Assembly: GCA_019057635.1 (NCBI GenBank) | Contig: DXJL01000011.1 | Location: forward strand, 1-16,368 | DNA length: 16,368 nt | DNA from: Candidatus Heimdallarchaeota archaeon | GTDB lineage: Archaea > Asgardarchaeota > Heimdallarchaeia > Hodarchaeales > Hodarchaeaceae | Direction: 5' to 3' | Shown here: piece after piece, positions 1 to 15,403 of the stretch | Layout: each line of letters starts with the position of its first letter | How positions within the stretch are numbered: the first letter of the stretch is position 1 | The notes under the pieces: generated by a model | Seen by the model: the letters and a program-made list of their open reading frames with translations, nothing else | Databases searched by the model: none | Told to the model about the DNA's origin: nothing | Position numbers and translations under genes: made by a program

Positions 1-1356
1 ATTGCTTTCTATTTAAAAGAAGTGCTTGTAGAACCTTCCAACTTTGATGCATTATTTGTAACCATGGTAACTTTTTCTGCAAAGCTTAGTGAGGGCTTAA
101 TTAACGTGCCTGTCGCTCGATTTTCCGATAATATAAGAACAAGATTTGGTAGAAGAAGACCATTTTTTTTGCTTACTCCCATCTGGGTGTTCTTTTTCGT
201 ATTAACATTTGCCTGTCCATTTGATGAAACATACCTCATACTTTTGTGGCTTCTTCTCGCATATGGGGGATTTCGATGGACTAATGCAGCGGTTGTAAAT
301 CCGTACCTTGCCCTTCTTCCCGAAATAGCACCAGAGGAACATCAACGTACTATTTATAATTCATATCGTACCTTATTTGTTTTACTCGGGACAATAATTG
401 GAGTAATAAGTTTCCCAATTTTACGAGGTTTATTTGTTGGATCTTTTGGAGAGTCAAAAATAACCGCATTTTATGCTACACTGCCAGTTGCGTTCCTAAC
501 ATTCATTGGCATGGTAGTAGTATTTTTCGGTGTAAAAGAGAATCCTAATGTGCCAGTAACCCAATTTGGTATGATAAAATCCTTTAAAGAGACATTCAAA
601 AATAAAACCTTTTTTCCTAGCTATTTGGCCACTGTCAGCGCCCTCATGCTAGCTGAATCTATGCTCCTTGCCTCGCTTCCGATGATTGCTCAAGATTATA
701 TTGGTCTCTCCCCCGATGATTTGATGGTATCTTTGATTTCAGGGATATTTGTTGTATCTGCAATAATATCCATTCCATTTATCACCAAACTTTCAAAACG
801 GGTCGGTAAAGCCAGATTGTATTACTATTGCTGTTTGTCTTTCGGTATATTGGCTTGGTTAATTATTTTTATCGGTCAGGTTCCATTTATTACTCCAGAA
901 AATTCCGTGTCTTTTACAGTGAGTGCTGATGACACAATTCAAGCTGTAACTAGCTCCGAATGGAAAAATTTTGCATTACTTCAGACTATTCTGACAATTA
1001 TGATAGTTGGTATTCCGGTTGGTGGTGTTATGGTGCTAGGCTATTCTGTCTTCTCTGATGTCATTGATTTCGATGAAAAACACACTGGTCAAAGAAGAGA
1101 ATCAATGTATTTTGCCGCACAAGGTGTAGTAGACTGGTTTTTTGCTGCTGCAGGGGATCTCATTCTTGGAATTTTACTTACACTTTTCGGAAGAGAATAT
1201 TTCTCTGATGCAATTACAACAGAATCTGGTCTATTAAACACTGGGCCAGCTGGGTTGCTTTTAGTTGGGCCCGTAGCTGGAGTTATACTTCTTCTCGGGG
1301 CCTATATGTTTCGGAAATACCCATTAATGGAAGAAAAGAAGAACAAAACAACATAA
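1..1356 (+). CDS. MFS transporter, GPH/MelB-like sugar-glycoside:cation symporter family (5'-truncated by the window edge)
   Basis: Frame 1 is open from base 1 (IAFYLKEVLVEP...), so the true start lies upstream. It has many hydrophobic segments and GPH motifs: SDNIRTRFGRRRPF, NPYLALLPEI, FKETFKNKTF, LSKRVGK and SDVIDFDEKHTGQRRESMYFA. Confidence 0.9.
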   Translation: MAFYLKEVLVEPSNFDALFVTMVTFSAKLSEGLINVPVARFSDNIRTRFGRRRPFFLLTPIWVFFFVLTFACPFDETYLILLWLLLAYGGFRWTNAAVVNPYLALLPEIAPEEHQRTIYNSYRTLFVLLGTIIGVISFPILRGLFVGSFGESKITAFYATLPVAFLTFIGMVVVFFGVKENPNVPVTQFGMIKSFKETFKNKTFFPSYLATVSALMLAESMLLASLPMIAQDYIGLSPDDLMVSLISGIFVVSAIISIPFITKLSKRVGKARLYYYCCLSFGILAWLIIFIGQVPFITPENSVSFTVSADDTIQAVTSSEWKNFALLQTILTIMIVGIPVGGVMVLGYSVFSDVIDFDEKHTGQRRESMYFAAQGVVDWFFAAAGDLILGILLTLFGREYFSDAITTESGLLNTGPAGLLLVGPVAGVILLLGAYMFRKYPLMEEKKNKTT

Positions 1357-1374
1357 AATGTTGTTTCCAACACC

Positions 1375-1391
1375 TCTTCCTCTTTTTTTTC
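1375..1391 (+). terminator. possible archaeal oligo-T terminator
   Basis: A pyrimidine tract ending in T8 (1383-1390) lies about 25 nt after the MFS stop codon. Confidence 0.4.
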
Positions 1392-1507
1392 CCAAGTTAA
1401 CAATATAGATAAAAAAATAACGTTCTGGTTGTTGAAATTTCTTATTTGAATCATATAAAAGAAAATGATATAAAAATGATATAGAATAATGGTTATTTGG
1501 GATTTAT

Positions 1508-1804
1508 TTGGTATCCACCGAGAAAATACGCTTCCAATTACCTTCTAGTCGAAACTATTTTTGTGAAATGAAAAGAATAGAGGACGGGTACGAGCTGATA
1601 TTCTACCAAGCTATCACAAGAATAAAAACAATCCATATTTCTGAGGCTCAAATCGATCGTCAATACTTACATAAGGTCGCAATTAATGTAGGCATTGAAT
1701 TTTATGCTCTTACTGGTCCATATGATTGTGCAGATGAAATATTGCGACAGTGGCATAAACACTTCAAGAAAAAGGGCTGGAAAGAACGAATATTTGGTCG
1801 TTAG
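1508..1804 (+). CDS. small hypothetical protein (up to 98 aa; start uncertain, TTG)
   Basis: The ORF fills the gap after an AT-rich intergenic region. Its stop codon overlaps the convergent gene's stop at 1801-1804. No motif recognised. Confidence 0.5.
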   Translation: MVSTEKIRFQLPSSRNYFCEMKRIEDGYELIFYQAITRIKTIHISEAQIDRQYLHKVAINVGIEFYALTGPYDCADEILRQWHKHFKKKGWKERIFGR

Positions 1805-2763
1805 AATCCTGTATCCTTGGTTAATTTTGCTCGTAACTTTTCTATCATTTCTTTCGTCATTTTAGCTAGATCATACTCGGGATCCCAATTCCATTCTGCC
1901 CGTGCAACTGAGTCATCAACTGACTGAGGCCAAGAATCCGCAATTGCTTGCCGAAAGTCGGGTTTATAATCAATGGTAAAGTCTGGAATGATTTCTTTGA
2001 TAGATTGAGCAAGGATTCCTGCACTAAAACTCATAGAGCCAATATTAAATATTCTGTGCTTTAACTTGGCGTTATCAGCTTCAGCTAAATCAATCAATCC
2101 TTTTATGGCATCTGGCATGTACATCATAGGTAAAACAGTATCTTCCCGAACAAAACACATGTATGATCCTTGTTGTACTGCATCATAATAAATAGCTACA
2201 GCATAATCTGTGGTTCCTCCACCTGGAGGTGTCTCACTGCTAATAATACCAGGATATCTGACAGAGCGAACATCTACCCCATATTTATGATGGTAATAAT
2301 CAGCAAGTAGTTCTCCTGCGACTTTAGTGACCCCATAAATAGTAGTTGGCCGTAAAATCGTGTCATTAGGTGTATTCACCTTCGGGGTATCCGGTCCAAA
2401 TACTGCAATCGATGATGGCCACATAACGCTAATATCGTATGTACGAGCTACCTCTAAGACATTGTATAACCCATTCATGTTAATATCCCAGGTTGACTGT
2501 GGTTTATGTTCCCCAACGGCACTTAAGATGGATGCCATATGATAAATCGTGTCAACATTATTCTCAAAAGCAGTTTTTTCTAAATGATTACGATCCAAAA
2601 CATTCAGGTAACAAAATGGGCCATTGTTCTTAATATAAGCTGGAAGTTGTGTCCGTCGACCTGTAGCAATAACTACAGCATCTTTCCCATAGTGTTGACG
2701 TAGAGCCGTCACTAATTCAGTACCTATTTGACCAGCAGCACCAGTAACAAGTATATTCTTCAT
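1801..2763 (-). CDS. L-threonine 3-dehydrogenase, SDR (GalE/epimerase-like) type
   Basis: Rossmann motif ILVTGAAGQIG and catalytic YGVTK (YxxxK). Also SDR-TDH signatures LSAVGE, PSSIAVFGP, VRYPGIIS, PGGGTTDYAV, LPMMYMPD and RQAIADSWP. Confidence 0.9.
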   Translation of the reverse strand: MKNILVTGAAGQIGTELVTALRQHYGKDAVVIATGRRTQLPAYIKNNGPFCYLNVLDRNHLEKTAFENNVDTIYHMASILSAVGEHKPQSTWDINMNGLYNVLEVARTYDISVMWPSSIAVFGPDTPKVNTPNDTILRPTTIYGVTKVAGELLADYYHHKYGVDVRSVRYPGIISSETPPGGGTTDYAVAIYYDAVQQGSYMCFVREDTVLPMMYMPDAIKGLIDLAEADNAKLKHRIFNIGSMSFSAGILAQSIKEIIPDFTIDYKPDFRQAIADSWPQSVDDSVARAEWNWDPEYDLAKMTKEMIEKLRAKLTKDTGF

Positions 2764-3157
2764 AAAAAATCCCTTCAGGCCTTAATCAGTTTGTATACTT
2801 CAATGGTTATTTGATTTCTTATCCCATTCATCTAAAAATATAGAGGAGAGAACCACGAAGAGAAGGAAAAGAGTAGTAAATAGTAAGGAAAACAAAATTA
2901 ACCTAATTAAATGAATCCATTACAACTTTAATTTCCCGTTTCTCATGGATTTCAGTCATCCCTTTTTCCCAATCAATCATATTTACACGATGCGTGATAA
3001 TATTATTTTTAAGCTTATCCTGCAAGTTTTTTGACTTTAAGAGCCCTTTCATTACTTGCTAAGTTTGAAATTTACGTCGGCCAGCAATTCCAAAAACTGA
3101 TGTTCCCTTACTAATCATCAATGAATTAATATCAAATTCAATTGATCCTGGAAAGAA

Positions 3158-3330
3158 CCGTTCTGAAAGACTTACCCAAATAGGACAGCTAGGAATAATT
3201 TGGAAAAATTATTCTTAACTATCTTTGGAGCTGTTCTTCCTGATTCAGCGACGCGAGCCGGCATTAATGCTGGTCTTACCGCCTCTCCACAGGCGTTTAA
3301 AGTCTCCGCAGAACTCTCGGCGACGGGAAA
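3158..3330 (-). ncRNA. putative TnpB omegaRNA (reRNA) scaffold, copy 1; guide would continue into 3157-3138
   Basis: The pattern AACGCCTGTGGAGAG...GTAAGACC...GAATCAGGAA is typical of tnpB 3' ends. Pairings seen: CCTG/CAGG, hairpin CCAGCAT-TA-ATGCCGG, long hairpin CCAAA-GATAGTTA-GAATAATTT / AAATTATTC-TAGCTGTC-TTTGG, and a possible AAGAC/GTCTT pseudoknot next to the element end. The 5' boundary is approximate. Confidence 0.7.
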
Positions 3331-3559
3331 TACACATGACTTTTCTGCTTGATTAGCAGCTTTTCTTCTTATAAACCTACTAGCCCTGTAATCATAAACA
3401 AATTTGCTTGTTTCCCGTTATTCTAATATCAAGAAGTTACAGATCGCGTCATTTTAGGTATAATCGCATGAGATCGGTTGAACACTCTGTTAATCATGAA
3501 TTTTAATCTCTACCCCTTCCTCTAAGATATCCTGCCTTCTATTTCTCTTCTTTCCCTAA

Positions 3560-3591
3560 TGTCATCTTGTCCTTAAATGTCCATATCTGTC
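3560..3591 (-). repeat. phased GACA direct repeats at the element left end (candidate TnpA binding sites)
   Basis: TGTC occurs on the + strand at 3560, 3568, 3578 and 3588. The equivalent motifs in copy 2 are at 8913, 8930, 8940 (TGGC) and 8950. Confidence 0.55.
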
Positions 3592-4016
3592 AATCTATCC
3601 GACAACAGTATTGACCCCTAGTAGAGAAACACGACCACCATACGTTAATGATTCTAAACCGTGTTTGAGAGCATAAATATTCCCTGCCATTTCAAGAAGA
3701 ACATTAACTCCTACTTCATCTGTTGCATCTTTAATAATTTTAGGAATTTTCTCCCCTTCCCCTCGGGTATTAAAAACCATATCTGCACCTAGCTTTTTTG
3801 CAGTTTCTAACCTCAGTAAATTATTTCCACCAGCTGTAACGAACACTTGTCCTGCCCCAAGCATTTTTACTTCTGGGATGGCCATGAGACCAATAGGGTC
3901 AGCACCAGTGATGAGAATATTTTTACACGCAATATCTTCAATATTATCTTTGGGTAATATAGTATGAACTGCATTTCCTTATCACATAAGATGCTTGTCT
4001 GATATGATACTCAACC

Positions 4017-4871
4017 CTAGAATAAGGGATGGTTACTAATAAGGAGCTCAGGATTACCTTTCTGGGTATTGTTCATATCATTATAGGTATTATAGCCTAA
4101 TATGTAGAACTGACTGAAAATTTCCCTGATAAGAGGCGTATCACGATTTGATAAGAGCCAGTGAATTGGTAGAGAAGTTAGGAGATCTTTCAATTTATCA
4201 ATATCAATTTGATTATATTTTTTCCCGTACAATGAGCCTTTTTGAGCAACATCATGATATGGGGGGTCTAAATAAAGGAAATAATCTATTAAGTCATCAT
4301 CTGGAGAGAGCGAAACTATTATCTTTTTATAATCAAAATTAGTGATTCGCACCTTTTTGTTTTCAAATATCTGATGGATAAAACGCCACATTTTTGGTTT
4401 ATTCTGATACCATTTTCGATGGGCTTTCTCATGACTATATCCACCTCCAGCACCATTCGGAGAGCAATTGAGAATTACCAATCTTCTTATTGCACGATCC
4501 AATGTTTTGGAGGGATTAAATTGTTTCCAGTGATAGTAATCATCCCTTGTGACTGGCTCTAACGATTTTATGGATTCTATGAGTAGTTGTAGTAAAGTTG
4601 AATCCTGCATACAGCTTAACAATGAAAATATTTCTGGATCTTTATCATTTAACCATACTTGTGAAATTTGGGGAGATAAGGCAATGAAAACATTGGCTAA
4701 GCCAGCAAATGGTTCAACAAAATATTCTATATGTTTAGGAATGGACAAATAAAGTGGGAGATGTTTTTTCTTATCACTTTTACCTCCAGGAAAACTGGCA
4801 ATTGTGGTGCGCTTGGGGAGAAACAATTGTTCGTCTAATAAACGTGAGTTATCCCACATTTTCTCCATCAA
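4017..4871 (-). CDS. DNA adenine methyltransferase, Dam/D12 class
   Basis: Motifs FPGGKS, SAM-binding FVEPFAG, WLNDKD, catalytic FLYLDPPY, WLLSNRD and C-terminal ELLISN. The start is uncertain by a few codons. Confidence 0.88.
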   Translation of the reverse strand: MMEKMWDNSRLLDEQLFLPKRTTIASFPGGKSDKKKHLPLYLSIPKHIEYFVEPFAGLANVFIALSPQISQVWLNDKDPEIFSLLSCMQDSTLLQLLIESIKSLEPVTRDDYYHWKQFNPSKTLDRAIRRLVILNCSPNGAGGGYSHEKAHRKWYQNKPKMWRFIHQIFENKKVRITNFDYKKIIVSLSPDDDLIDYFLYLDPPYHDVAQKGSLYGKKYNQIDIDKLKDLLTSLPIHWLLSNRDTPLIREIFSQFYILGYNTYNDMNNTQKGNPELLISNHPLF

Positions 4872-4920
4872 GGTAAACTCCGAAATTAAGTGGACAAAAG
4901 GAGAGGTAGATATCTATTTT

Positions 4921-5385
4921 TCATTTGGAATGGTAAGTATTCGTATTCTTAAATGTATCTTCTATTTTTGGAATAATTGAACTAAACTGTTTTACCTCTT
5001 CAATTTCATTGATTCTTGCTGCACGGAAAAATTTATACAATAATTGTCTAGGGTAAGGATCAATAAGTCCGTGACCTTTACGTTTTTGGAGTTCCTTCTT
5101 CAAATCACTTCGCATATGCTTCCCCTCCTTATCAAAGTCCAGAAGAAGTATGATTATTGAAACAGGATAAATTTGATCTGCAAGTTTGCTCAGAGACAAA
5201 CCCTTTCTAGCCAAAATTTTTCCGTTAATTAGCGTGATTCCAATGGCTTCTAATGCTTCAATATCTCGTTTTCCTTCAACGATAAGAACAACTGGTTCCC
5301 TGATCGAGTTGCAATACGCAACAAATTGAATTAATATGCCAAGGGGAAGATTAGTTGACGGTTTCATTATCTCAAAATTCGTCAT
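4921..5385 (-). CDS. small stand-alone Toprim-domain protein (archaeal small primase-like / RNase M5-like)
   Basis: Toprim motifs LIVEGKRDIEAL and LLLDFDKEG (DxD). Its start overlaps the upstream stop codon (ATGA, 5382-5385). Confidence 0.85.
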   Translation of the reverse strand: MTNFEIMKPSTNLPLGILIQFVAYCNSIREPVVLIVEGKRDIEALEAIGITLINGKILARKGLSLSKLADQIYPVSIIILLLDFDKEGKHMRSDLKKELQKRKGHGLIDPYPRQLLYKFFRAARINEIEEVKQFSSIIPKIEDTFKNTNTYHSK

Positions 5386-6905
5386 TCACGTGCGAGAAGC
5401 ATTCCTTCAATAGTAACTGGTAAATCACCTTTTACTAATTCAGCTTCTGCTGCTGCTAGCTTTTTCTCATTAGATGAATATAATGTAAACAAAATTTCAC
5501 CCCGTTTAACAGAATCCTTCTTCTTATGAAAATATATTCCTGCTCGTTTATCCATTGGTGCGCCTGCAGCACGTGCAGCTCGGACGATGACTTTGTTATC
5601 AATTTCAACGACATAACCACTTTGAGGTGCCAAATATTCATAGGTAGCAGATCCAACTTCTATATCTGCAGGTTTCAAGTCTGGATCAGCGTTCTGAGCC
5701 TCTAAGATTTGTTGGAACTTCTTATACGCTTTACCCGAATTTAAAATCTCATACGCCATTTCTTGACCTGTACCAGGAATCGTTTTCCCAGCCATCTCAA
5801 GTAGAATACCCGCTAAGGAGGTACTCTTTCCAACTAAAGAATGAGGAGCTTCTAAAGAGTTTTTTAAACTTGTCAGGGCCTCTCTAGCCTCTAATGCAGG
5901 GCCAATAGCATTGCCAACAGGTGAGCTTCCGTAGGTTATACCACTTTCGATACGAATCCCGACTAGACGACCTAATTCAGAAAAGCGATGAGCAAGACGC
6001 TTGCCAGTATCTAAATTAGCCACTTTAGTCCCATAACCGCATGGAATGTCTAAGACAAGGAACTTGACTCCCATTGCGATTTTCTTGGAAATGACAGAAG
6101 CCATCATCATTGGTTCAGGATCGATACCCAGCGGATACTGAACATCACGGATAATCTTTTCATCGGCTGGAACAATATTCAAACCACCTGTCCATGCAAT
6201 TAATCCACCAATGTTTTGAGCTATGTCTACCATCTCATCGATGGTGAATTCAATGTCACACCCTAGAGCTTCCATAGTATCTGCCGTACCAGAAGGGCTG
6301 GTGATAGCACGTGAGGATGTTTTCGGAATTGTTAATCCTACAGCAGCAATGATAGGAACAACTAGAAGAGTTACCTTATTACCAGGAACCCCACCGAGAG
6401 AATGCTTATCAAAGATTACAGTTTCACCCCAGTTGATTGTCTCTCCAGAACGGGCTCTTGCCTTAGTTAGACATTCAACCTCTCCAATACTCCACTCTTG
6501 AAGCATTTGAGAGGTTAGAAATACAGACTCCTCAAGCGGGGTCATGTTATCAAGTGTGATGTCGCTGACAATCTGGTCTATTTCATTTTTAGTGAATATT
6601 TTTCCAGGTTGGGTTATTCGTTGCTTAATCAAGGAGAAACTCTTAGAGATAGTCCTGCCCACTGATTGAAGTGTCACCATCTCTCCTTCTGTAACTCCTA
6701 GTTTATTCATCATGACCTGGGTTAGTCCTATTTGGTTTTCTTCTAAAAGACATTTAAATTTGAATACTTGTCCGACTTTTGCCTCTTTTCCTTTGAAGGA
6801 TAAAGCAAATTTCGCTTGTGTAACGATATGTTGATTATTCTCCGCGGAAACAATCACGGCATCTTTTGGGTCAATTTTAGAAGTTACAACTTTGTATTCT
6901 GGCAT
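5382..6905 (-). CDS. deoA: AMP phosphorylase (archaeal thymidine/pyrimidine-nucleoside phosphorylase family)
   Basis: Motifs DKHSLGGVPGNK, IPKTSSRAITSPSGTADTME, ASVISKK, DIPCGYGTKV, IGPALEAREAL and ARAAGAPMDKRAGI. It is 507 aa with the N-terminal extension typical of AMP phosphorylases. An AAGGTGA RBS precedes the ATG. Confidence 0.93.
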   Translation of the reverse strand: MPEYKVVTSKIDPKDAVIVSAENNQHIVTQAKFALSFKGKEAKVGQVFKFKCLLEENQIGLTQVMMNKLGVTEGEMVTLQSVGRTISKSFSLIKQRITQPGKIFTKNEIDQIVSDITLDNMTPLEESVFLTSQMLQEWSIGEVECLTKARARSGETINWGETVIFDKHSLGGVPGNKVTLLVVPIIAAVGLTIPKTSSRAITSPSGTADTMEALGCDIEFTIDEMVDIAQNIGGLIAWTGGLNIVPADEKIIRDVQYPLGIDPEPMMMASVISKKIAMGVKFLVLDIPCGYGTKVANLDTGKRLAHRFSELGRLVGIRIESGITYGSSPVGNAIGPALEAREALTSLKNSLEAPHSLVGKSTSLAGILLEMAGKTIPGTGQEMAYEILNSGKAYKKFQQILEAQNADPDLKPADIEVGSATYEYLAPQSGYVVEIDNKVIVRAARAAGAPMDKRAGIYFHKKKDSVKRGEILFTLYSSNEKKLAAAEAELVKGDLPVTIEGMLLARE

Positions 6906-6976
6906 ATGTTCACCTTAGATCTAGTTCCCAAGATATCCCCTTTTGCATAATGGGAACTATGCACTCTTCATCTAAG

Positions 6977-7000
6977 TATAAATATTTAGTCTTTTTTCAG
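6977..7000 (-). promoter_or_regulatory. candidate BRE/TATA promoter for the AMP phosphorylase operon
   Basis: The minus strand reads GAAAAAAGACTAAATATTTATA, a purine run followed by TTTATA, about 72 nt upstream of the ATG. Confidence 0.35.
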
Positions 7001-7153
7001 GAGACCTTTTTTGGATTTAGGATGATTTCTAACTTATCATAATGGAGGTATACCTTGATAAGCGGTCACCATAATTAAAAACAATTTAAAGGTAGTTTTA
7101 AGGGATATAGAAGGTAAGAATCAAATATAAAGTTACAGAGGATGAAGTTTGGA

Positions 7154-8446
7154 TTATTCCTCTGATTCTTTCTTCATTTTAACGACCATCTGGAAGTTTT
7201 GAGCCAATGAATCATAGAAATCAATCAAAGTTTCCAAATCATCTGCCATCAATGAACCACCCCGACCCATTTCACCAATTTTTCGCAGCATTAATCGATC
7301 TGCTTCTCCTAATCCGATCGCATAGAGGACTACTTCGGGATGTTGCTCCACATGCTGCTTCACGATTGGAATGGGGTTTACTCCAAGTCCATTTCCTTTG
7401 TTCGGATTTCCATCAGTGAGAACAATAATCATGGTTGGATTTTTCTTCTGGATTGTAGGGTTTTCGTCAAAACTGTCAATACTTTTGTATGCTTGATCTA
7501 ACGCCCCACTCAGAAATGTTAAACCAGTACTTTCTGAGGTCTTTTGGACAACATGATCAATAATACTTTCGATTCCTGCTTTTTTTGTCTCACCAACACA
7601 AGAAATGACATTTGCTTCTCCTAGTGAATATCTCTCTACTTCGCCAGAGAATGTCAGTAACTGAATTTGTTCTCCCCACCCTTTGGCAATTTTTAGTGAC
7701 ATAAACAACATAATAGCCATAGCAGCTGCATCGACCCTAGACACTTTTTTACCATCTTGGAATTTTTCAATGAACAAGTTAAGTTCATCTGACTCATCTA
7801 ACCCCTTTTTTAATCCTTCCAATGCACCACTAATATTTTTGACTTTCATATCCTTTTTAGACATACTCCCTGATACATCAAGAACTAATACTGCGTTGAA
7901 ACTCATTTCGGTAAATGGAATTATGTTTATCTCCACTTCACGACCTGTTGGATCTACAATTCCTATATTGCCATCTGGAATTGGAGGATCAGCTCCAAGG
8001 AAACGCACCATAATATTGCCAATTGGACAATCTTCCCAGGCAATTTGAAGATTGTTGAACACAGGTCGATTTTTGAGAAGAGTAGAAAGCTGTTCGAATT
8101 CTGTAGCAATCCACAAAATGGTTTCTTCAACTTCTTGACCAGCAAGAGGTTCTATCCCCAATTTAATTGATTTGATACCTGCTGCAGCATTATTAATAGG
8201 TTCTACTTCCACAGCATCACCATCTGAAATATTTGCTGATGATAGTACACTAGCATCTACAGCAATAGTTCCCTGTTCCACTTCATCTGAAGAAAGAATT
8301 TGAACCGCACCCCAATCTTCCCATTCTGTTACCATTTTAACATAATCAAATTCATTTATAGCCAGTTTTTCTATATCTTGGGTGTGGAGGTACGCTCGTC
8401 CTTCAATATTACCCACATTTACAACATTCAACGGTATTCTGGTCAT
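7154..8446 (-). CDS. CDC48/VAT N-domain-like region fused to a von Willebrand factor A (vWA) domain
   Basis: Start placed at the ATG at 8446 because it follows a GGAG RBS (430 aa). The N-terminus has double-psi-barrel-like repeats (RAYLHTQDIEKLAINEFDYVKM; GTIAVDASVLSSANISDGDAVEVEP) followed by a CDC48_2-like segment (LLKNRPV). The vWA domain has an intact MIDAS: LVLDVSGSM, GLT, IIVLTDG, then LYAIGLG. Confidence 0.85.
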   Translation of the reverse strand: MTRIPLNVVNVGNIEGRAYLHTQDIEKLAINEFDYVKMVTEWEDWGAVQILSSDEVEQGTIAVDASVLSSANISDGDAVEVEPINNAAAGIKSIKLGIEPLAGQEVEETILWIATEFEQLSTLLKNRPVFNNLQIAWEDCPIGNIMVRFLGADPPIPDGNIGIVDPTGREVEINIIPFTEMSFNAVLVLDVSGSMSKKDMKVKNISGALEGLKKGLDESDELNLFIEKFQDGKKVSRVDAAAMAIMLFMSLKIAKGWGEQIQLLTFSGEVERYSLGEANVISCVGETKKAGIESIIDHVVQKTSESTGLTFLSGALDQAYKSIDSFDENPTIQKKNPTMIIVLTDGNPNKGNGLGVNPIPIVKQHVEQHPEVVLYAIGLGEADRLMLRKIGEMGRGGSLMADDLETLIDFYDSLAQNFQMVVKMKKESEE

Positions 8447-8508
8447 CTTATTGTCTCCTTGTATGAACGCCAAGTTTATTCTTTATTATTTCAGTCTAGA
8501 TTGTTATT

Positions 8509-8681
8509 CCGTTCTGAAAGACTTACCCAAATAGGACAGCTAGGAATAATTGGGAAAAACTATTCTCAACTATCTTTGGAGCTATTCTTCCTGATTCAGC
8601 GACGCGAGCCGGCATTAATACCGGTCTTACCGCCTCTCCACAGGCGTTTAAGGTCTCCGCAGAACTCTCGGCGACAGGAAA
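8509..8681 (-). ncRNA. putative TnpB omegaRNA scaffold, copy 2; guide would continue into 8508-8489
   Basis: Same motifs as copy 1. Hairpin CCGGTAT-TA-ATGCCGG is fully paired. The stem substitutions relative to copy 1 give G-U pairs on the minus strand (GATAGTTG/TAGCTGTC, GAATAGTT/AATTATTC). Confidence 0.7.
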
Positions 8682-8979
8682 GACCCATGACTTTCCTGAT
8701 TGATTAGCAGTTTTTCTTCTTATAAACCTACTAAGCCCTGTAATCTACAACAAATTTGCTTGTTTCCCGTTATTCTAATATCAAGAAGTCACGTAGTGCG
8801 TCATTTTATGTATAATCTCATGAGATCGGTTGAACACTCTGTTAATCATGTATTTTAATCTCCACCCCCTTCTCCTAAGATATCCTGCCTTCTATTTCTC
8901 TTCTTTCCGTGATGTCATCTTTTCCTATTTGTCTCTAAATGGCCATATCTGTCAATCTATCCGACAACAGTATTGACCC
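8509..8979 (-). mobile_element. non-autonomous IS607-family (tnpB-derived) element, copy 2 (intergenic)
   Basis: Aligns end to end with 3158-3617 and is 11 bp longer (a 9-bp left-end unit plus two 1-bp indels). Minus-strand junctions are TTTAAAG-GG-GTCAATAC...TTTCAGAAC-GG-AATAAC. Confidence 0.85.
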
Positions 8980-9027
8980 CTTTAAAAATTACATCCTTTG
9001 AGATAAAAGAATGTTAGATATCTATGT

Positions 9028-12000
9028 TTAAAGATCCAAGTCACGCCTCTTTTCAAAAGTAGTTTTTGTTATTAGACTATATACTCCAATTGGTTCGGAT
9101 ATTAGGTGCATGGGGAGAATGCCCTTATCTGTACGAATTTGAACATCAAAGATTAAGTATCCACATTTTTTAGGAGTTTTAAATTTGATGGTTGGCGCAA
9201 TAAACTCATCACCTTTATCTATGTACCTCTTTAAGCGTAAAGACGTTAATTTCTTAGTTTCTCCTTGGGGAAATGTGTTGACATAAATTGAGATGGCAAC
9301 AGGAGGCAAAGATCTAAGGAAATGAAAAACAAAATCAACTGCGTAATGTGTTTTTGGTTCTACTCCTTGCCATAAGTCATTTTTTGACCCAGGTCGTGTT
9401 ACGAATGACCAATCAACAACAACTTCGCGTAGAACGGGGACATGAATACTTTTGAAAGATCGATTTTTCTTTAGAAGACCCATTGTGACACGAGCGAGAA
9501 TATAAAAGGAGCTATGCTGATAATCTATAGATAAATCTAGGCTTCGAGCTAATTCAAAAGATGCAAGAGGTTTTAGATTAAATTTTTCTTCATAAATTAC
9601 AATAGGTGTTGACGATGACTGTGTTGCTAATAGTAACGTTAGTTCTCCTCTTTCTTCTTTCTTAGAGTCGTTAGTTGCTTTGTACACACACTCAACAGTT
9701 CCAAAATTACTAGTGATATAGAATTCTTTGGGTGAAATACTAATTTTGTCTTTTCGTTCCACTGCAAAGGAAAATTTCTTAGGTAGTAATCTATGATTTG
9801 TTGAAGTAATTGCTTCCACTCGAATTCTTAGTTTTCCGTATATTTCCCCTAAGTCAATAGAACAAGGAATTCGTACCGTTTGGTGCTTTTCAATTCGAGA
9901 TATATCCAAAAACGTCCTTAGTGTACTAATTATATTGTTTGTTTGATTATCATAAAACTTCAAGGTTATAGGGTTATTCCGAAATTGGTACATGACCTTT
10001 TTAATGTCACTAAAAGAGAGTACGATATACCCGAACAGTTCGGGCCCAGAAATTAGAGCTGGAAAAACAGCAGTTTGTTTTTTGGGAAATGGCTTGAAAT
10101 CGGACTCTTCCTCTTTAAGATGTTCTCGGAAAAACACAACCCGCTTAGCTTCGATTTCTTGACGACGGGTACGCATGATATTTGCGATTTTGGAACTAAT
10201 TTTCTGATATTTTGGTTCAATCTCAATCATGGGGGAATATATTTCTAGATCCTCGTTTTCATCGAAAGCTGAGATTACTTGAGTAGGTTCTCGTTTTGCT
10301 ATAGGTTTTGTTTCGGGAGTTGGTTTCTTTTTCTCTCTTTGTTTTGGAGTTTTTGCCTCAACCATTTTTTTCGGTTTTGGGGTTTCAGGAGGCCGCTGCT
10401 TTTTAATCGGCGCTTTTTTCTTTGTTAGAGGTTTTTCAGGAGTGGTAGCAGGAATTTTTTTCGTTTTATCTTTGATGACTTTCTCTTTAGCTACCACAGG
10501 TTTCTTTTTCTTCTGCTTTTTTGGTTTTAATTCAGATCTGCTCTTGAAAACTTCCCGAGTTGCAATATCTTGTTGTAGGAGCTGGGTTAAATTCTGTTGT
10601 TGTTCATTTACCTCCAAAAAGGAATCAGGAGGATTCTCAACAAGAAAGGATGAAAAATCACCTGCCACTTGGGGCGGATAAATAAGTTTTTCGCTATAAT
10701 ATAGTTCATTAAGAAACTCAGGTACTTTTTGATTCTTTTCTGCATAGAGTTTGAAAAGGTATTCGCATACCGAAAATGGCGGGGCAAATTTTTTTGACCC
10801 TAACACAGGTAAGAGGACTTGGTCGATGTAGTTTGAGTTAAATTCAAGTAACTCATCTTCGATGTAGATTAGTAAAGCTAAAACTGAATGCATTAATTTA
10901 GATGCTTTAACTCTTTTTTCAATATCATAATTGTAGAACCATGCAAACTCCCCTGTTAAGGTCTCATCTCTGGTAAATTGAGCAAGTAAACCAAATTGAA
11001 TAGCTTTTCGACGATTTTTATACAAACTCTGAGATGATACTGTGGGAACTGGGTTCTTTTGTTTTATCAGTGTTTTTGTTTTTTGGGCCAATGCCTGTAT
11101 AAGTAATACCATAGCTAAGCGATTTTCTTTCCAAGGTTGTGCATCAAAGAACCTAAGCTCTATAGTTGAATAATCTGTGTAGGGAAAAAGATCTATCATG
11201 CGGTCTTCGGGGGGTACTTTCTTTATTAATCGTGCAAAATCTTCTCGTGAAGTCATATCCTCTATAATGGGTAAATATTGAGGTATATTGGGCCCCATTT
11301 GACCTGTATTGTTAGCCAGTCGATATGAATGAGTACCACGACTTATTACTTGTTTTTTATCATTTTTTTCTTTAATAATAACTTTACTACTTGTACTTTG
11401 ATTCAAAAACGGTGAAGTGGAGCTTAATGCTATTAAGTGGGGAATGTAGTTACGGAGCATGTTATATACAGGTGCTCGAATAAAAGATGGAATTCCTATA
11501 TGATGGTGTTCTCCACATGTGAGTCCACTTCGTACTCTTTTTTCCATCGGGTTTAATCCCATTGGTAATAACGCACACTTACCTTTTACCTTTGATAATC
11601 CATAAACTGCTGCGGCATACAAAGAATCAATCCAAAAGGCAATTTCCTCCAGATATTCACATGGCGGGGTCACTAATTCCAGTAACCAAGTTATCTGGGA
11701 TATATTTGGATCGGGCCCGAATACATTGACTCGTACGGTTTGTTTACCCAAGCGATAATGTACAAAAATGAAATTAAGTCGTTTTTCTCGTTTTATTTCT
11801 TCGGTAACTTCAATTTTTACAATTTTCTTAGCAATTGTCTTGGGAGTATGTTTTGCTTTTTTTAGACGTTCTAAGTACTTTACTGCACCAGAAAACATTT
11901 CCTCCCACGTACTTAGCAAATCATTTCCTACTAGTACCTCTCCAGTAGTCACGTCAACAAGGTGATTTTCTACTTCTATCCCATGTGAGAAAAATAGAGG

Positions 12001-12039
12001 TGTTTTCAATACGTAGTCTTTTAGGTTCATTGTTTTCAC
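9028..12039 (-). CDS. large multidomain protein: N-terminal glutamate-cysteine ligase (GCS2/YbdK-like carboxylate-amine ligase) domain, Lys/Pro-rich linker, beta-rich C-terminal region
   Basis: GCS2 motifs SHGIEVENHLVD, LLELVTPPC, TCGEHHHIG, IPHLIALSSTSPF, SYR and TIELRFFDAQ. A low-complexity K/P/T/E tract lies at about aa 500-585. The C-terminal ~350 aa show alternating beta-strand patterns. Confidence 0.8.
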   Translation of the reverse strand: MKTMNLKDYVLKTPLFFSHGIEVENHLVDVTTGEVLVGNDLLSTWEEMFSGAVKYLERLKKAKHTPKTIAKKIVKIEVTEEIKREKRLNFIFVHYRLGKQTVRVNVFGPDPNISQITWLLELVTPPCEYLEEIAFWIDSLYAAAVYGLSKVKGKCALLPMGLNPMEKRVRSGLTCGEHHHIGIPSFIRAPVYNMLRNYIPHLIALSSTSPFLNQSTSSKVIIKEKNDKKQVISRGTHSYRLANNTGQMGPNIPQYLPIIEDMTSREDFARLIKKVPPEDRMIDLFPYTDYSTIELRFFDAQPWKENRLAMVLLIQALAQKTKTLIKQKNPVPTVSSQSLYKNRRKAIQFGLLAQFTRDETLTGEFAWFYNYDIEKRVKASKLMHSVLALLIYIEDELLEFNSNYIDQVLLPVLGSKKFAPPFSVCEYLFKLYAEKNQKVPEFLNELYYSEKLIYPPQVAGDFSSFLVENPPDSFLEVNEQQQNLTQLLQQDIATREVFKSRSELKPKKQKKKKPVVAKEKVIKDKTKKIPATTPEKPLTKKKAPIKKQRPPETPKPKKMVEAKTPKQREKKKPTPETKPIAKREPTQVISAFDENEDLEIYSPMIEIEPKYQKISSKIANIMRTRRQEIEAKRVVFFREHLKEEESDFKPFPKKQTAVFPALISGPELFGYIVLSFSDIKKVMYQFRNNPITLKFYDNQTNNIISTLRTFLDISRIEKHQTVRIPCSIDLGEIYGKLRIRVEAITSTNHRLLPKKFSFAVERKDKISISPKEFYITSNFGTVECVYKATNDSKKEERGELTLLLATQSSSTPIVIYEEKFNLKPLASFELARSLDLSIDYQHSSFYILARVTMGLLKKNRSFKSIHVPVLREVVVDWSFVTRPGSKNDLWQGVEPKTHYAVDFVFHFLRSLPPVAISIYVNTFPQGETKKLTSLRLKRYIDKGDEFIAPTIKFKTPKKCGYLIFDVQIRTDKGILPMHLISEPIGVYSLITKTTFEKRRDLDL

Positions 12040-13433
12040 TCTTGCGACGATTCACGCCTCAATTCAGCATGCAGCTTTTCCAGCGAAAGTTTTTTTGCTT
12101 TTCTCAATGATTTTTGGGTTGAAAGTAGTGGATGAATAGTATTTTCACTGAAATTAACTTTCTGAATGGATTGATGGACAGATTGCAAAAATACTTCTTG
12201 TAGATTGGTTGTTTCAAAGATTATAAAAGAAATTTTTGAGTTTGTTCCTCCTATTGAAAGTACTTGAACTACCTGTTTTTTCGAGTGGTCATAAGCCAGA
12301 TCGATTCTTGCATAATTCCCTTCTTTCGTCATGAATTCTTTGAGAAATTGCAGAAAGATATCCTTAGTAACTTTATATTTGAATTTAGAATTATTGCAGG
12401 GAGTTTGGTTCCATGCAACAGGGATTAGTGCAAGTGCATTGGCCCCCAAGATTTTAAATGCAATATTCATGGGATTTTTGTTTTCATCTATCTCAAATAC
12501 CATTTTGTGGAATTCTTTTGAAAATAAGTATGCTATTAAATCCGTTGCCTGGAGTACACTAAAATAATTATGGTCTGAACCAAATAGGAGTTTATCATCC
12601 CATTTAGGAACTTCCATTACATGGTTAAAGAAGATTCCAACATCCTTCCCACGCATTCCAGATGTTTCAGCATACATACCATCTTGTGATAAACACTCAA
12701 AAATTTCAGGAGAAGAGTAATCGAATCCTGTATGACCAAGTATGACATTAACAGGATTATCTGCCCCTTGACGAGCTTTCTGAGTTATAGTTGTAATATC
12801 GAGAGCTACTCCTTTATTGGGTACATCAAAAATTACTGGAATATTAAGATTTCCAGCAGTTTGTAAAATATCATTTGTTTCTGGAGAATTAATCTTATCT
12901 ACCCATCCTTGAGAAAGTGGATGTAACTTTAATCCACACATTCCGAGGTTGATAGACTCTTGAACTTCCTTTACTGCCCCTGAATCAGTCGGATCTACAC
13001 GACAAAAAGGAGCAAATCGAAATGTATTATCAAATGTATTAACCTGATGACGAACATAACGATTGCTTTTAACAAATTTTGGTTGAGTTTTCAGGTGAAA
13101 AATATCATTAAACGGGAATGTAACTACTCTGTCAACTAGCCAACCTCTTGTTTTACTAGATTGGGAAGAAAGTACTGATTTAACAAATGGAAAGAGGGGC
13201 TCTGCGCAAGTTTCGACATCAGGAATATGTATATAATAGCTGTCTTCGCTCTGTTTAATACGAGAGACAATCTCATACTGCAATTTCTGGTATAAATTTG
13301 TTATGTCCTGAGGTTGATTGATACGCTGTGAGGCGCCCTTCGTTGTTGCTATTTTTACCCGTCCTATATGAGTGTGGACGTCTACAAGTGGTAGGGAGTA
13401 TAGATTATCCTCCTCATCAAATACCTTCAACAA
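12036..13433 (-). CDS. metal-dependent amidohydrolase (Amidohydro_2-like TIM barrel) with C-terminal extension
   Basis: Motifs LVDVHTHIG (HxH), PFCRVDP, GLKLHP, VILGHTG, LLFGSDH and KILGANA. TTG start after GAGGT. Its stop overlaps the ligase start (ATGA, 12036-12039). Confidence 0.85.
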   Translation of the reverse strand: MLKVFDEEDNLYSLPLVDVHTHIGRVKIATTKGASQRINQPQDITNLYQKLQYEIVSRIKQSEDSYYIHIPDVETCAEPLFPFVKSVLSSQSSKTRGWLVDRVVTFPFNDIFHLKTQPKFVKSNRYVRHQVNTFDNTFRFAPFCRVDPTDSGAVKEVQESINLGMCGLKLHPLSQGWVDKINSPETNDILQTAGNLNIPVIFDVPNKGVALDITTITQKARQGADNPVNVILGHTGFDYSSPEIFECLSQDGMYAETSGMRGKDVGIFFNHVMEVPKWDDKLLFGSDHNYFSVLQATDLIAYLFSKEFHKMVFEIDENKNPMNIAFKILGANALALIPVAWNQTPCNNSKFKYKVTKDIFLQFLKEFMTKEGNYARIDLAYDHSKKQVVQVLSIGGTNSKISFIIFETTNLQEVFLQSVHQSIQKVNFSENTIHPLLSTQKSLRKAKKLSLEKLHAELRRESSQE

Positions 13434-13561
13434 CAGAAATACCTCAGAAGATTCAGAGGGACTCTCCGAATCATTATCTTTTTAATTTTCCCTAACTATA
13501 AAGAAAATTTCTGTGTTGAGCTGAATTATGAAAATATTAAAGTGGATCTTAAAAAAAATCC

Positions 13562-14473
13562 CTAAGAAATTCTGTAGACAGTTTTAAAGAATGTCTGCCC
13601 TAATTTAGTCAAAGAAATCCAAAAATTTTCATCTTTTTTTAATCGTGATAATTTTAATGATGGAAACAACGATTTATCAACAGAAAAGTGTTTAATTAGT
13701 AATGCAAAAATAGGTAAAAGAAAAATTCCTTGAATTGACAGTCGAAATCGTTTTTCTTTTCCCCAATTTTCTTCTACCATCAAGAAACCTGACAGCTTGT
13801 TTAGTGAACTGCTAATAGGAGTTGAAATTTCTGTTGTATTTTCTATTGTAGATTTATTTAAACCAGTATTATAGTGTAAGTAATCCCAAATCAATTCTTC
13901 AAAGATTTTAAAGGCAGTATTCCCAGTTTTACCAGTAAAAACCTTGACCATTGGGATGATAAATGGTTTTGAAAGTTTTATTTTACGTGGTTCTTTTCCC
14001 GTTCTTAATGAGGTCAAAACACGCTTCAGAGTAGCATCTTGAGTGAGTAACGTATCAATGGTGTACAAAATCATCTTATCTTCAGAATCAGCATAGTCTT
14101 GGAATCGGCTAGTATCCCAATGGATTGAAGCAGGATCAATTTTAACAATATACATTAAAAGTACATAAGTTAACACAATGTAGCCTAAAGGACTAATTGA
14201 ATGGAAAGAAACTTTTGTAGAGCTGATTACCTTCTCACGTTCTCTTTCAAGAATACCCCCATTTACTAGGGAAGTAATCAATCCTCTAGTTTTTGCAGTG
14301 GTGAATTCTTCGTGTTTTCCAAGAAGACATGATAAAATATCCGTTATTCCTTGGATGGTATTACGATCTGCCTTTTGTCCTAAGTATACAGACATGAGGC
14401 ACAGAATGCGGTTTTCGTGTTCAATTACTGCAAGAGTATCGACAAGTTGGGTAAATGGATCAGCAGATTCCAT
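13562..14473 (-). CDS. hypothetical protein with two probable winged helix-turn-helix domains
   Basis: Two wHTH-like segments, each ending in a wing plus (I/L)SxxG: NRILCLM...TAKTRGLITSLVNGGILERE...FHSISPLG and AFKIFEEL...GLNKSTIENTT...ISSSLNKLSGFLMVE...RFRLSIQG. Confidence 0.65.
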   Translation of the reverse strand: MESADPFTQLVDTLAVIEHENRILCLMSVYLGQKADRNTIQGITDILSCLLGKHEEFTTAKTRGLITSLVNGGILEREREKVISSTKVSFHSISPLGYIVLTYVLLMYIVKIDPASIHWDTSRFQDYADSEDKMILYTIDTLLTQDATLKRVLTSLRTGKEPRKIKLSKPFIIPMVKVFTGKTGNTAFKIFEELIWDYLHYNTGLNKSTIENTTEISTPISSSLNKLSGFLMVEENWGKEKRFRLSIQGIFLLPIFALLIKHFSVDKSLFPSLKLSRLKKDENFWISLTKLGQTFFKTVYRIS

Positions 14474-14494
14474 TTTGGTAACCTTTTATTAATT

Positions 14495-15082
14495 TCATTG
14501 ACCTTGACCATCCCAAACATCAAATGCAGAAGAATCTTTATCAAATTCACACAGATCCAAGATACCTGTTAAACAGTTCTGGGTTTCCTTTTGGAATTGA
14601 CCATCTTCAACTTTGATAGCAACTGTAGGAAGGATATACTTGATTAGTTTTTTTTGTGTATTAATGAAAAAATCCTCAATCTTCTCTTTATATTCATCAT
14701 AGTTATCGTTTGCTAAATCAAATTTATTAAGAAAGATAGTGACTTGTTTGGTAGGAATTTGGAGGTTCTCGTAGAATTTAAGTTGTCTATCAAGGTCTAT
14801 GGACAAATCGAACATGCACAAAAAGCGGTTAGCGTTTCTTAAGACATAAACACGGTAGTAATCAGTAATAGGAGTAGTGTGACCGCCTGTGCCGTATAAA
14901 ACATGAATAAATCCCCTGTGGGTAAATCTTATGAAATCTACAGTTTGAGTGGTGTACATCTCTGGACCTCCTGGGGAACCAGAAATAATTTTCTCATTAG
15001 TGGCGGCCAATGAGTTCATAAATCGTACAAATACTGATGTTTTCCCGCAATTCATGTCACCTAAAATACCAACATTTACCAC
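14495..15082 (-). CDS. Ras-superfamily-like small GTPase with a non-canonical G3 motif (MglA/ATP_bind_1-like)
   Basis: G1 GDMNCGKTS, G2-like TTQTVDF, G3 position LYGTGGH, G4 NKFD, G5-like TVA. GTG start with an AAGGAGA RBS at 15092-15098. Confidence 0.85.
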   Translation of the reverse strand: MVNVGILGDMNCGKTSVFVRFMNSLAATNEKIISGSPGGPEMYTTQTVDFIRFTHRGFIHVLYGTGGHTTPITDYYRVYVLRNANRFLCMFDLSIDLDRQLKFYENLQIPTKQVTIFLNKFDLANDNYDEYKEKIEDFFINTQKKLIKYILPTVAIKVEDGQFQKETQNCLTGILDLCEFDKDSSAFDVWDGQGQ

Positions 15083-15403
15083 GAATACGCGTCTCCTTAT
15101 AATTGTCTAATATATAATCTTGCTTTGTAGATCGTTATCTCTCTATCCATACGACATTTGAGATGAGTCAAAGCATTTTTCGTTCGATAGAGTCCTAGGG
15201 AAGCTAAGAATGCGTCCAAAGTTATCTTAAATTATATGTATTATGAATATTATTTGTTTTAATGAAAGATTCTATTCGTAAAAATCTAGTTAAAATGCAA
15301 AAAGAAGTATTTTCATGATAGAACAATATGATTTATTCCGTGATCTAAGGGATTCATTTATTAATTTAATTCATTTTCAAAGTATCAAACACAGGGAAAG
15401 AAA

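Follow-up and report, generated by a model that had tools for sequence, protein, structure and literature searches.

Guide-only derivatives of TnpB systems have been described in several settings. Stand-alone omegaRNAs of OMEGA systems are mobilised and work in trans according to one account (PMC10691335, citing Altae-Tran et al. 2021), and palindrome-associated transposable elements (PATEs) of Geobacillus stearothermophilus and Clostridioides difficile are reported often to encode omegaRNAs that need TnpB in trans (bioRxiv 10.1101/2023.03.14.532601, 10.1101/2023.11.20.567912). In the second of these reports TnpA acts in trans to excise an engineered mini-insertion sequence (mini-IS) derived from an IS607 IStron of Clostridium botulinum, which also provides TnpB with guides in trans (bioRxiv 10.1101/2023.11.20.567912). 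Here we analyse a stretch of 16,368 nt, hereafter the window, from an Asgard archaeon of the order Hodarchaeales (Candidatus Heimdallarchaeota archaeon, assembly GCA_019057635.1, contig DXJL01000011.1, positions 1 to 16,368), which contains two copies, A and B, of a short protein-free element that we call the mini. An original prediction, made from the letters of the window, had taken these copies for IS607-type mini-elements that retain a TnpB omegaRNA scaffold, each with a different guide, and had correctly assumed an Asgard archaeon as the probable host. We consider it fairly probable that the mini is a protein-free derivative of an IS607-type tnpB element in this genome and that it serves as a source of guide RNA for TnpB in trans.

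With the stand-alone omegaRNAs, as that account presents them, the mini has in common that copies of the scaffold occur without nuclease or transposase, that effector loci are present in the genome and that the guides derive from the flanks; it differs from them in its IS607-type lineage, its Asgard host, the retention of its own promoter region, its occurrence in at least three deletion lineages and in being known from sequence alone. Gene-less, dispersed copies and intact cognate TnpBs in the same genome, by which stand-alone omegaRNAs are recognised, are all present here. Like the PATEs of the IS200/IS605 type it is a minimal, protein-free element with the ends of a tnpB element, but PATEs, as those reports characterise them, have subterminal palindromes and are moved as single-stranded DNA (ssDNA) by a Y1 TnpA, whereas here neither is seen and the signature is that of a serine recombinase with a GG core. 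The reported mini-IS likewise consists of a left and a right end without genes and uses a TGGG/GG target, comparable with the GG-core AGGG found here; it is, however, a bacterial laboratory construct of 581 + 221 bp with a group I intron, whereas the present element is natural, intron-free and archaeal, with ends of 296 + 167 nt (39 + 184 nt in the solo form described below). The full-length parents of the mini are tnpB-only, as are IS1341-type elements. ISDra2 is an IS200/IS605 (Y1) element whose target-adjacent motif (TAM) is TTGAT. The TnpB considered here aligns with that of ISDra2 over its full length, and in both systems the RNA module extends from within the 3′ end of tnpB to the right end of the element, whereas the TAM predicted here is AGGG and the lineage is linked to serine recombinases. 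Stand-alone omegaRNAs, their use in trans and the supply of guides in trans by an IS607 mini-IS have already been published, so that the idea itself is not new; a limited word search of the open-access literature found no paper on IS607-derived guide-only elements in Asgard archaea.

Results

Two gene-less copies of a dispersed element

The sense strand of the element is the minus strand of the window, on which the element starts with AGGGGTCAAT and ends with CAGAACGG. A repeat search of the window recovered copies A and B as four collinear direct-repeat blocks of 90-94% identity, and BLAST gave 91% identity between the copies over 462/473 nt. In a pairwise alignment the similarity sets in abruptly with CCGTTCTGAAAG at 3158 / 8509, on the left of the plus strand, and stops as abruptly with TTGACCCCT at 3619 / 8981, on its right. 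The original prediction of a ~460-bp segment that occurs twice in the same orientation at about 90% identity was therefore correct as to the two copies, and its right-hand limits, 3617 and 8979, fall 2 nt short of the true ones. It had also described the segment as lacking terminal inverted repeats and long reading frames, and both statements held up: the repeat search of the window gave no pair of inverted repeats reaching 30 nt, an absence of terminal inverted repeats that is expected of IS607, and the list of open reading frames (ORFs) contains none of 80 aa or more inside either copy, two frames overlapping the edges only. Frame 3595-3885(-), which belongs to an interrupted dehydrogenase gene, extends 25 nt into copy A. 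A frame of 135 aa with a TTG start, 8300-8707(+), runs antisense across the end of gene 7154-8473 into copy B; it has no counterpart in copy A and is probably spurious.

The source assembly (G000; 3.19 Mb in 214 contigs, 91.6% complete) gave 33 BLAST matches to the element at E<=0.001, 8 of them near full length and many of the others ended by contig edges, which supplies the copy count that the prediction had proposed as a check. All 8 complete copies start with AGGG and finish with GGGTAAGTCTTTCAGAACGG, and in an alignment with 40-nt flanks the sequences beyond these ends all differ. In the contigs of four public DNA runs, many unrelated loose ends lie exactly at 3157/3158, 3618/3619 and 8981/8982, and the read depth on the element is 10-25x that of its flanks. 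The element is thus repeated far beyond chance. Contigs bypassing copy A or copy B, as an empty allele would, were absent from those of the four runs; the sole joint seen in them, 5525 to 6256 in one contig (side 29), is weak and unrelated to the element.

Insertion at AGGG without target-site duplication

Both copies are absent from the sister species, and their empty sites could be read in related genomes. At copy B the empty site is ...TTTTTAA-AGGG-AA(T/A)AACAATCTAGACTGAAA..., with T in genome G002, whose flanks are 96% identical, and A in genome G005, and the occupied site of G000 is ...TTTTTAA-AGGG-GTCAAT...CAGAACGG-AATAACAATC.... The empty site of copy A in G002, ...TTTACT-AGGG-TTCTTTCCAGGATCAATTGA..., lies inside an intact 402-codon frame for a Zn-dependent dehydrogenase; in G005 the same site reads AGGA instead of AGGG. 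When occupied G000 is compared with empty G002 and G005, neither copy has a target-site duplication and only AGGG/GG is shared, the GG being common to both junctions (AG[GG]GTCAAT...GAAC[GG]flank against AGGG+flank). GG closes each of the 16 left junctions examined, 11 of which read AGGG, 3 GGGG, 1 TGGG and 1 ACGG, the last being the right end of another element, and among the complete 3′ ends of the wider clade 36/38 matches of the covariance model described below end in GG, including 6 that have an upstream Resolvase ORF. IS607 elements are described as having a GG core, a preference for TGGG, no target-site duplication and no palindromic ends (bioRxiv 10.1101/2023.11.20.567912; PMC6188088). 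By its GG junctions, the lack of a target-site duplication and the serine recombinases encoded next to some of its relatives, we assign the element to the IS607 (serine recombinase) type. Insertion of the two window copies followed the split from G002, and the system was therefore active fairly recently.

The flanks agree with what would be expected of a guide. In the empty alleles of G002 the AGGG is followed directly by the 3′ flank of the respective copy, an exact match at both sites, and in G005 the flank of copy B follows AGGG with one mismatch in 20 nt (AAAAAC for AATAAC). To judge from these alignments, AGGG plus flank in the empty allele has the layout expected of TAM plus guide. The prediction had quoted the differing 3′ flanks after the element end correctly; each copy has its own.

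The same junctions could be read in another way, namely as those of an IS200/IS605-type PATE moved as ssDNA by a Y1 (HUH) TnpA, with AGGG acting as left-flank target and TAM. Insertion 3′ of a fixed tetranucleotide without target-site duplication also fits IS605, a 6-bp hairpin (GTCAAT...ATTGAC) lies close to the left end of the minis, and IS605 appears in the Pfam names given to the TnpB domains. However, this hairpin is missing from the full-length copies and the ends have no conserved palindromes, while GG at both junctions and the conserved ...CGG terminus, which recurs in relatives linked to tnpA(serine), fit a 2-bp crossover. A domain search of G000, a genome 91.6% complete, gave 0 matches to Y1_Tnp; across the genus such a match occurs in only 2/22 genomes, as a fragment each time. 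Of the 80 nearest TnpB relatives in a genome collection at species level, 66 have an upstream frame on the same strand that could be tested; this frame carries a Resolvase domain ending at the tnpB start in 16/66, nothing but a MerR-type helix-turn-helix (HTH) in 1/66 and a Y1 domain in 0/66. We regard movement by a Y1 TnpA as very unlikely. The IS607 assignment of the original prediction thus stands on GG at both junctions, the absence of target-site duplication, AGGG targets, a genome without Y1 and serine recombinases in the relatives.

Since the mini encodes no protein and is inserted in the manner of IS607, the transposase that moved it was presumably a serine-recombinase TnpA supplied in trans. 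Two relatives in genome G018 (TnpB 61-63% identity) have a decayed serine tnpA directly upstream, 52-62% identical to the TnpA of contig C56 in G000, and the right ends of both read ...GGAACGG, after which the flanks diverge. A second serine tnpA of G000, on contig C54, is intact and encodes 195 aa with HTH and Resolvase domains. The C56 tnpA (G000:C56:28779-29330, locus L032) reads M-K-L-TAG, followed in frame by an HTH-like stretch, EYAKNKGISYKTAGRMYKAGKIP...; it seems either knocked out at codon 4 or to start downstream without the DNA-binding domain, as a Resolvase only. The putative ends of this IS607-pair element lie directly after AGGG and directly after ...GAACGG. ATGGACA/ATAGACA-like motifs with ~10-bp spacing occur in the left end of the mini, and an inverted TGTCCTAT lies 30 nt from the right end; the regular expression for these subterminal motifs matched miniB and the C56 element and left the full-length copy on contig C104 unmatched, and we do not claim shared TnpA sites.

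Descent from a tnpB-only element

Full-length relatives of the mini are found in G000 on contigs C139, C104 and C152, where BLAST matched both mini halves with ~1.2 kb between them. The full-length element is 1.66 kb long and tnpB-only (C139 copy at G000:C139:3638-5300); its tnpB ORF is intact at C139 (435 aa) and C104 (426 aa) and broken at C152. The C139 and C104 ORFs bear the Pfam domains HTH_OrfB_IS605, OrfB_IS605 and Cas12f1-like_TNB, and the cognate TnpB aligns end to end with the structure of ISDra2 TnpB at E 2.8e-46 (PDB 8bf8, 8exa, 8h1j). All 8/8 members of the TnpB family examined have D199, E283, D365 and the Cys residues of the zinc finger. From the alignment and the numbering of ISDra2, we take the three acidic residues to be those of the RuvC catalytic site. 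Other proteins with the TNB domain in G000 gave 13 matches, with 21-33% identity over partial alignments except for one chance-level match of 15 residues, and on this comparison the parent TnpB family is distinct within the genome. The 3′ flank of the element with the 435-aa tnpB on C139, GATATTTATTCATCC..., recurs behind a 96%-identical copy in G002 (G002:C82, L034); this insertion thus predates the species split, unlike those of both window minis.

Aligned with the full-length copies, each mini consists of a left end of ~296 nt, an 8-nt tnpB remnant and the last 167 nt of the element. The left end is 71-76% identical to the non-coding region (~340 nt) upstream of the tnpB ATG. The last 167 nt, which correspond to the last ~130 nt of tnpB and 41 nt past its stop codon, are 84-86% identical between mini and full-length copies, and the final ~25 nt are identical. 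The tnpB-end motifs that had been predicted in the minus-strand 3′ part are accordingly real, since 3158-3324 and 8509-8675 align with the tnpB 3′ end. All minis have the deletion junction in common (in copy A 3332/3333), and metagenome contigs that continue into tnpB sequence part from the window exactly at the copy A junction, 3332. The left ends of minis and full-length parents held no tnpA remnant, tblastn with both serine TnpAs of G000 giving only a chance-level match (E 2.2). On these alignments, the minis are internal-deletion derivatives of a tnpB-only element of the same genome.

A conserved RNA module at the right end

The last 167 nt of both copies are predicted to fold more stably than expected (Table 1), and the left-end part, tested on copy B, showed no unusual fold (z -0.63). 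Right ends were collected from 9 genomes with a filter for coverage of most of the 200-nt query; 45 of 69 BLAST rows passed it, giving 39 unique sequences. These align from GTCGCCGAGAGTTC to the terminus, the lineages being unrelated further upstream, and all 39 have different 3′ flanks, bar one orthologous pair. In the predicted structure a closing helix, in which GUUCUGcGGAGAC near the 5′ end pairs with GUCUUUCAGAAC just before the terminal GG, contains three short hairpins and one long variable hairpin, and the terminal GG and the flank are single-stranded. Because the variable hairpin was absent from the MAFFT-based RNAalifold consensus, which gave P1 and two hairpins, the minimum free energy (MFE) structure of miniB was mapped onto the alignment instead.

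Within the close family 88% of cells are paired under this structure, as against 36-47% with slid partners, and the covariation score is 0.114 against 0.03-0.07; few pairs vary, and 9/500 shuffles matched the score. A covariance model (R1) built on the close-family alignment matched 39/66 loci of the divergent TnpB relatives, 36 of them at full length. The matches were always on the tnpB strand and, two extra copies apart, at the 3′ end of tnpB. In this wider clade 43/55 pairs change on both sides, and there are 211 compensatory cells against 91+-7 in shuffled alignments (0/500 reach 211) and 44-85 in slid controls; in the closing helix, for example, GUUC...GAAC is flipped to GUUG...CAAC. We conclude from the alignments that the 167-nt module folds into a conserved RNA, with covariation that is strong across the wider TnpB clade. 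Structural covariation, which had been set as a test of the original prediction, is present across the wider clade (43/55 pairs, 0/500 shuffles).

At two loci, L112:2314-2448 (G018-like) and L142:5568-5725 (Thorarchaeota), a second full-length match of the model lies 0.7-2 kb downstream of the one attached to tnpB. These second matches may be guide-only modules in other Asgard lineages.

Independent deletions that keep the module

Protein-free derivatives fall into at least three lineages that arose by different deletions, mini, mini2 and solo. The breakpoint of mini2 (contigs C125 and C51) lies exactly at GTCGCC, and the solo form (C174, and in genomes G012 and G002) is ~223 bp long, with 39 nt of left end and 184 nt of right end. 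The retained part of every lineage starts no more than 8 nt from GTCGCC, and 22-44 nt upstream of the module there is a TATA-like box, TTTATAA or TTTAAAA. Based on the usual distance from TATA box to transcription start in archaea, we infer that the TATA-like box is the tnpB promoter. G000 contains 22 complete modules and 2 intact cognate tnpB genes; 3 of the modules are joined to tnpB and ~19 are not, at least 16 of the latter having been shown to be gene-less. This repeated, convergent trimming to 'promoter + module' is the most interesting feature of the family.

Two solo elements, at G000:C174:1354-1690 and at L061 (G012:C55), have ~100 nt of upstream flank in common and unrelated downstream flanks, and may have been inserted next to another repeat. 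At L040 (G002:C96, ~1245-1683) a solo micro-element starts right after the ...CAGAACGG of a full-length tnpB element, in head-to-tail tandem, an arrangement to be expected if the GG at an element junction can act as target for a further insertion.

Genes around the two copies

Insertion of copy A destroyed a gene for a Zn-dependent (threonine-dehydrogenase-like) enzyme, of which G002 has an intact version. The gene has decayed further in G000, in which ~1.4 kb of the G002 sequence is gone between window ~3979 and ~4021, together with the N-terminal half. The position of copy A, inside a gene and in sense orientation, is one that an IStron-like element could occupy, with a group I intron splicing the insertion out of host transcripts, and IS607-family IStrons are reported to exist (bioRxiv 10.1101/2023.11.20.567912). 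However, a search of the window against Rfam, with its group I intron families, gave no match at E<=1, and the interrupted gene has since acquired an in-frame TAG and the upstream deletion, which makes such an element extremely improbable here.

Neither does the neighbourhood favour a domesticated regulatory RNA or promoter cassette that would control neighbouring genes by outward transcription or through a guided, TnpB-derived repressor. TnpB-derived RNA-guided repressors have been described, the promoter-like box is directed outward through the right end and copy B is intergenic; but copy A sits in, and destroyed, a dehydrogenase gene, the guides match their own insertion sites only, which they do by construction, the cognate TnpBs retain the catalytic D/E/D, and both copies are absent from the sister species. 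A regulatory role of this kind is hardly to be expected.

The region between the minis, window 4017-5385(-), holds a gene for a D12-class N6-adenine DNA methyltransferase and a small gene with a Toprim domain. The same neighbourhood is kept in G002, and the two minis are therefore not a composite transposon. In window 9028-14473(-) a 1003-aa ORF has a weak GCS2 match, and the next two ORFs (465 and 303 aa) gave no Pfam match at E<=1e-4.

Table 1. Positions in the window of the two minis, their parts and the interrupted gene
Feature	Position	Strand	Description
Mini, copy A	3158..3619	(-)	462 bp including the AGGG common with the target; repeat blocks, sharp borders, loose ends, empty site in G002/G005
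Mini, copy B	8509..8981	(-)	473 bp including AGGG; repeat blocks, sharp borders, loose ends at 8981/8982, empty site in G002/G005
OmegaRNA-like module, copy A	3158..3324	(-)	167 nt, GTCGCCGAGAG...CAGAACGG; predicted MFE -54.7 kcal/mol, z -3.19; best match of covariance model R1, 198 bits
OmegaRNA-like module, copy B	8509..8675	(-)	167 nt; predicted MFE -54.1 kcal/mol, z -2.46; R1 193.9 bits
Left-end part, copy A	3325..3615	(-)	Non-coding; TATA-like TTTATAA 3369-3375; 3325-3332 is the 8-nt tnpB remnant
Left-end part, copy B	8676..8977	(-)	TATA-like TTTATAA 8720-8726; deletion junction ~8683/8684; loose ends 8680/8681
Predicted guide, copy A	3138..3157	(-)	TTCTTTCCAGGATCAATTGA; unique flank right after ...ACGG; 20-nt length assumed
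Predicted guide, copy B	8489..8508	(-)	AATAACAATCTAGACTGAAA; right after element end; 20-nt length assumed
AGGG, left junction of copy A	3616..3619	(-)	Target motif and predicted TAM, with GG as putative crossover core; a single AGGG in the empty site
AGGG, left junction of copy B	8978..8981	(-)	From comparison of occupied and empty site
Zn-dependent dehydrogenase gene, upstream fragment	3620..3885	(-)	Pfam ADH_zinc_N, E 3.1e-16; contiguous with downstream fragment in G002
Same gene, downstream fragment	2903..3157	(-)	In-frame TAG 3059-3061 where G002 has Trp

Discussion

Our analysis suggests the following course of events for the mini. One ancestral deletion took out ~1.19 kb, from a point just past the putative start of tnpB transcription up to 8 nt before the module; it fused the left end (~296 nt, with the TATA-like box) to the 167-nt module, and the resulting mini then multiplied. 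A serine TnpA acting in trans would move it into NGGG sites (mostly AGGG) by exchange over GG, with no duplication. The retained promoter would transcribe the module together with the adjacent flank, yielding upon processing an omegaRNA whose guide would be the ~16-20 nt next to the right end, and TnpB from the few full-length copies would bind this RNA in trans. The complex would be expected to cut alleles with AGGG + flank, i.e. empty or excised sites, and repair from an occupied copy would restore the mini, a form of homing or retention.

Several observations weigh against this account. In their first ~35 nt, the left ends of the minis depart from those of the full-length copies, so that the direct parent has not been seen. 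The original prediction had looked to a full-length tnpA(serine)-tnpB parent with the same ends; tnpB-bearing elements with the same right end were found (C139, C104 and the broken C152), all tnpB-only, and a tnpA-tnpB parent with the ends of the mini was not found in the G000 assembly. As candidates for the acting TnpA, the intact C54 gene belongs to an element whose TnpB resembles the parent weakly (21% identity), and the C56 gene, which is closer to the tnpA of the lineage, is interrupted by an in-frame TAG at codon 4 of the frame that encodes the HTH. With regard to the RNA, the wide-clade alignment was fitted to the model and the structure was taken from one member, both of which lean towards covariation. 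The 5′ part of the module is in addition conserved TnpB coding sequence (...ETLNACGE.VRP...), an overlap that could alone explain conservation in the full-length copies. The search with omegaRNA models that had been suggested succeeded with our own covariance model (39/66 loci) and not with Rfam 15, which gave no match in the window at E<=1, the presence of such an omegaRNA model in Rfam not having been checked. Finally, in the 10 complete minis the module differs at 0.063 per site and the left end at 0.087, and within the module paired positions differ at 0.059 and unpaired ones at 0.069; because these differences are small, purifying selection on the RNA of protein-free copies is not demonstrated.

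These diversity values bear most directly on the possibility that the mini is an inert passenger, similar to a miniature inverted-repeat transposable element, that keeps its right end for the transposase in cis or by the chance of deletion and whose RNA has no role with TnpB. That the module is barely less diverse than the left end, with paired and unpaired positions alike, would agree with such a passenger, as would the fact that the last ~25 nt, the most conserved part, are also where a recombinase would act. However, three independent deletions end at or within 8 nt of a single point ~165 nt from the end, whereas excision of the C. botulinum IS607 element is reported to need only ~60 bp of right end; a TATA-like box upstream of the module is retained in all three lineages, and covariation across the clade shows the RNA structure to be conserved. 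The argument from the three deletions is somewhat weakened by the collection filter, which required matches over most of the module and could miss much shorter right-end remnants. On balance an inert passenger seems to us rather unlikely, yet it is the likeliest of the alternatives, and we continue to favour a guide source for TnpB in trans.

The finding leaves the current picture of TnpB systems unchanged. It provides a clean, sharply delimited natural example of guide-only derivatives of an IS607-type TnpB element from an archaeon, with exact empty sites, a predicted TAM of AGGG, a 167-nt scaffold and two intact cognate nucleases, and thereby a ready test system in which to ask whether TnpB in nature works in trans with many dispersed guides and whether the retention of guide-only elements depends on service by TnpB. 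The compact archaeal TnpB/omegaRNA pair may also be of use for nuclease mining. We propose, tentatively and as a somewhat doubtful extension, that the guide-only cassettes are a selected 'satellite' layer of the IS607/TnpB system and not mere decay products. If this were true, such satellites would either parasitise the homing activity of TnpB or widen its targeting, and the arrangement would represent a natural case of one nuclease with many guides in the archaeal lineage closest to eukaryotes.

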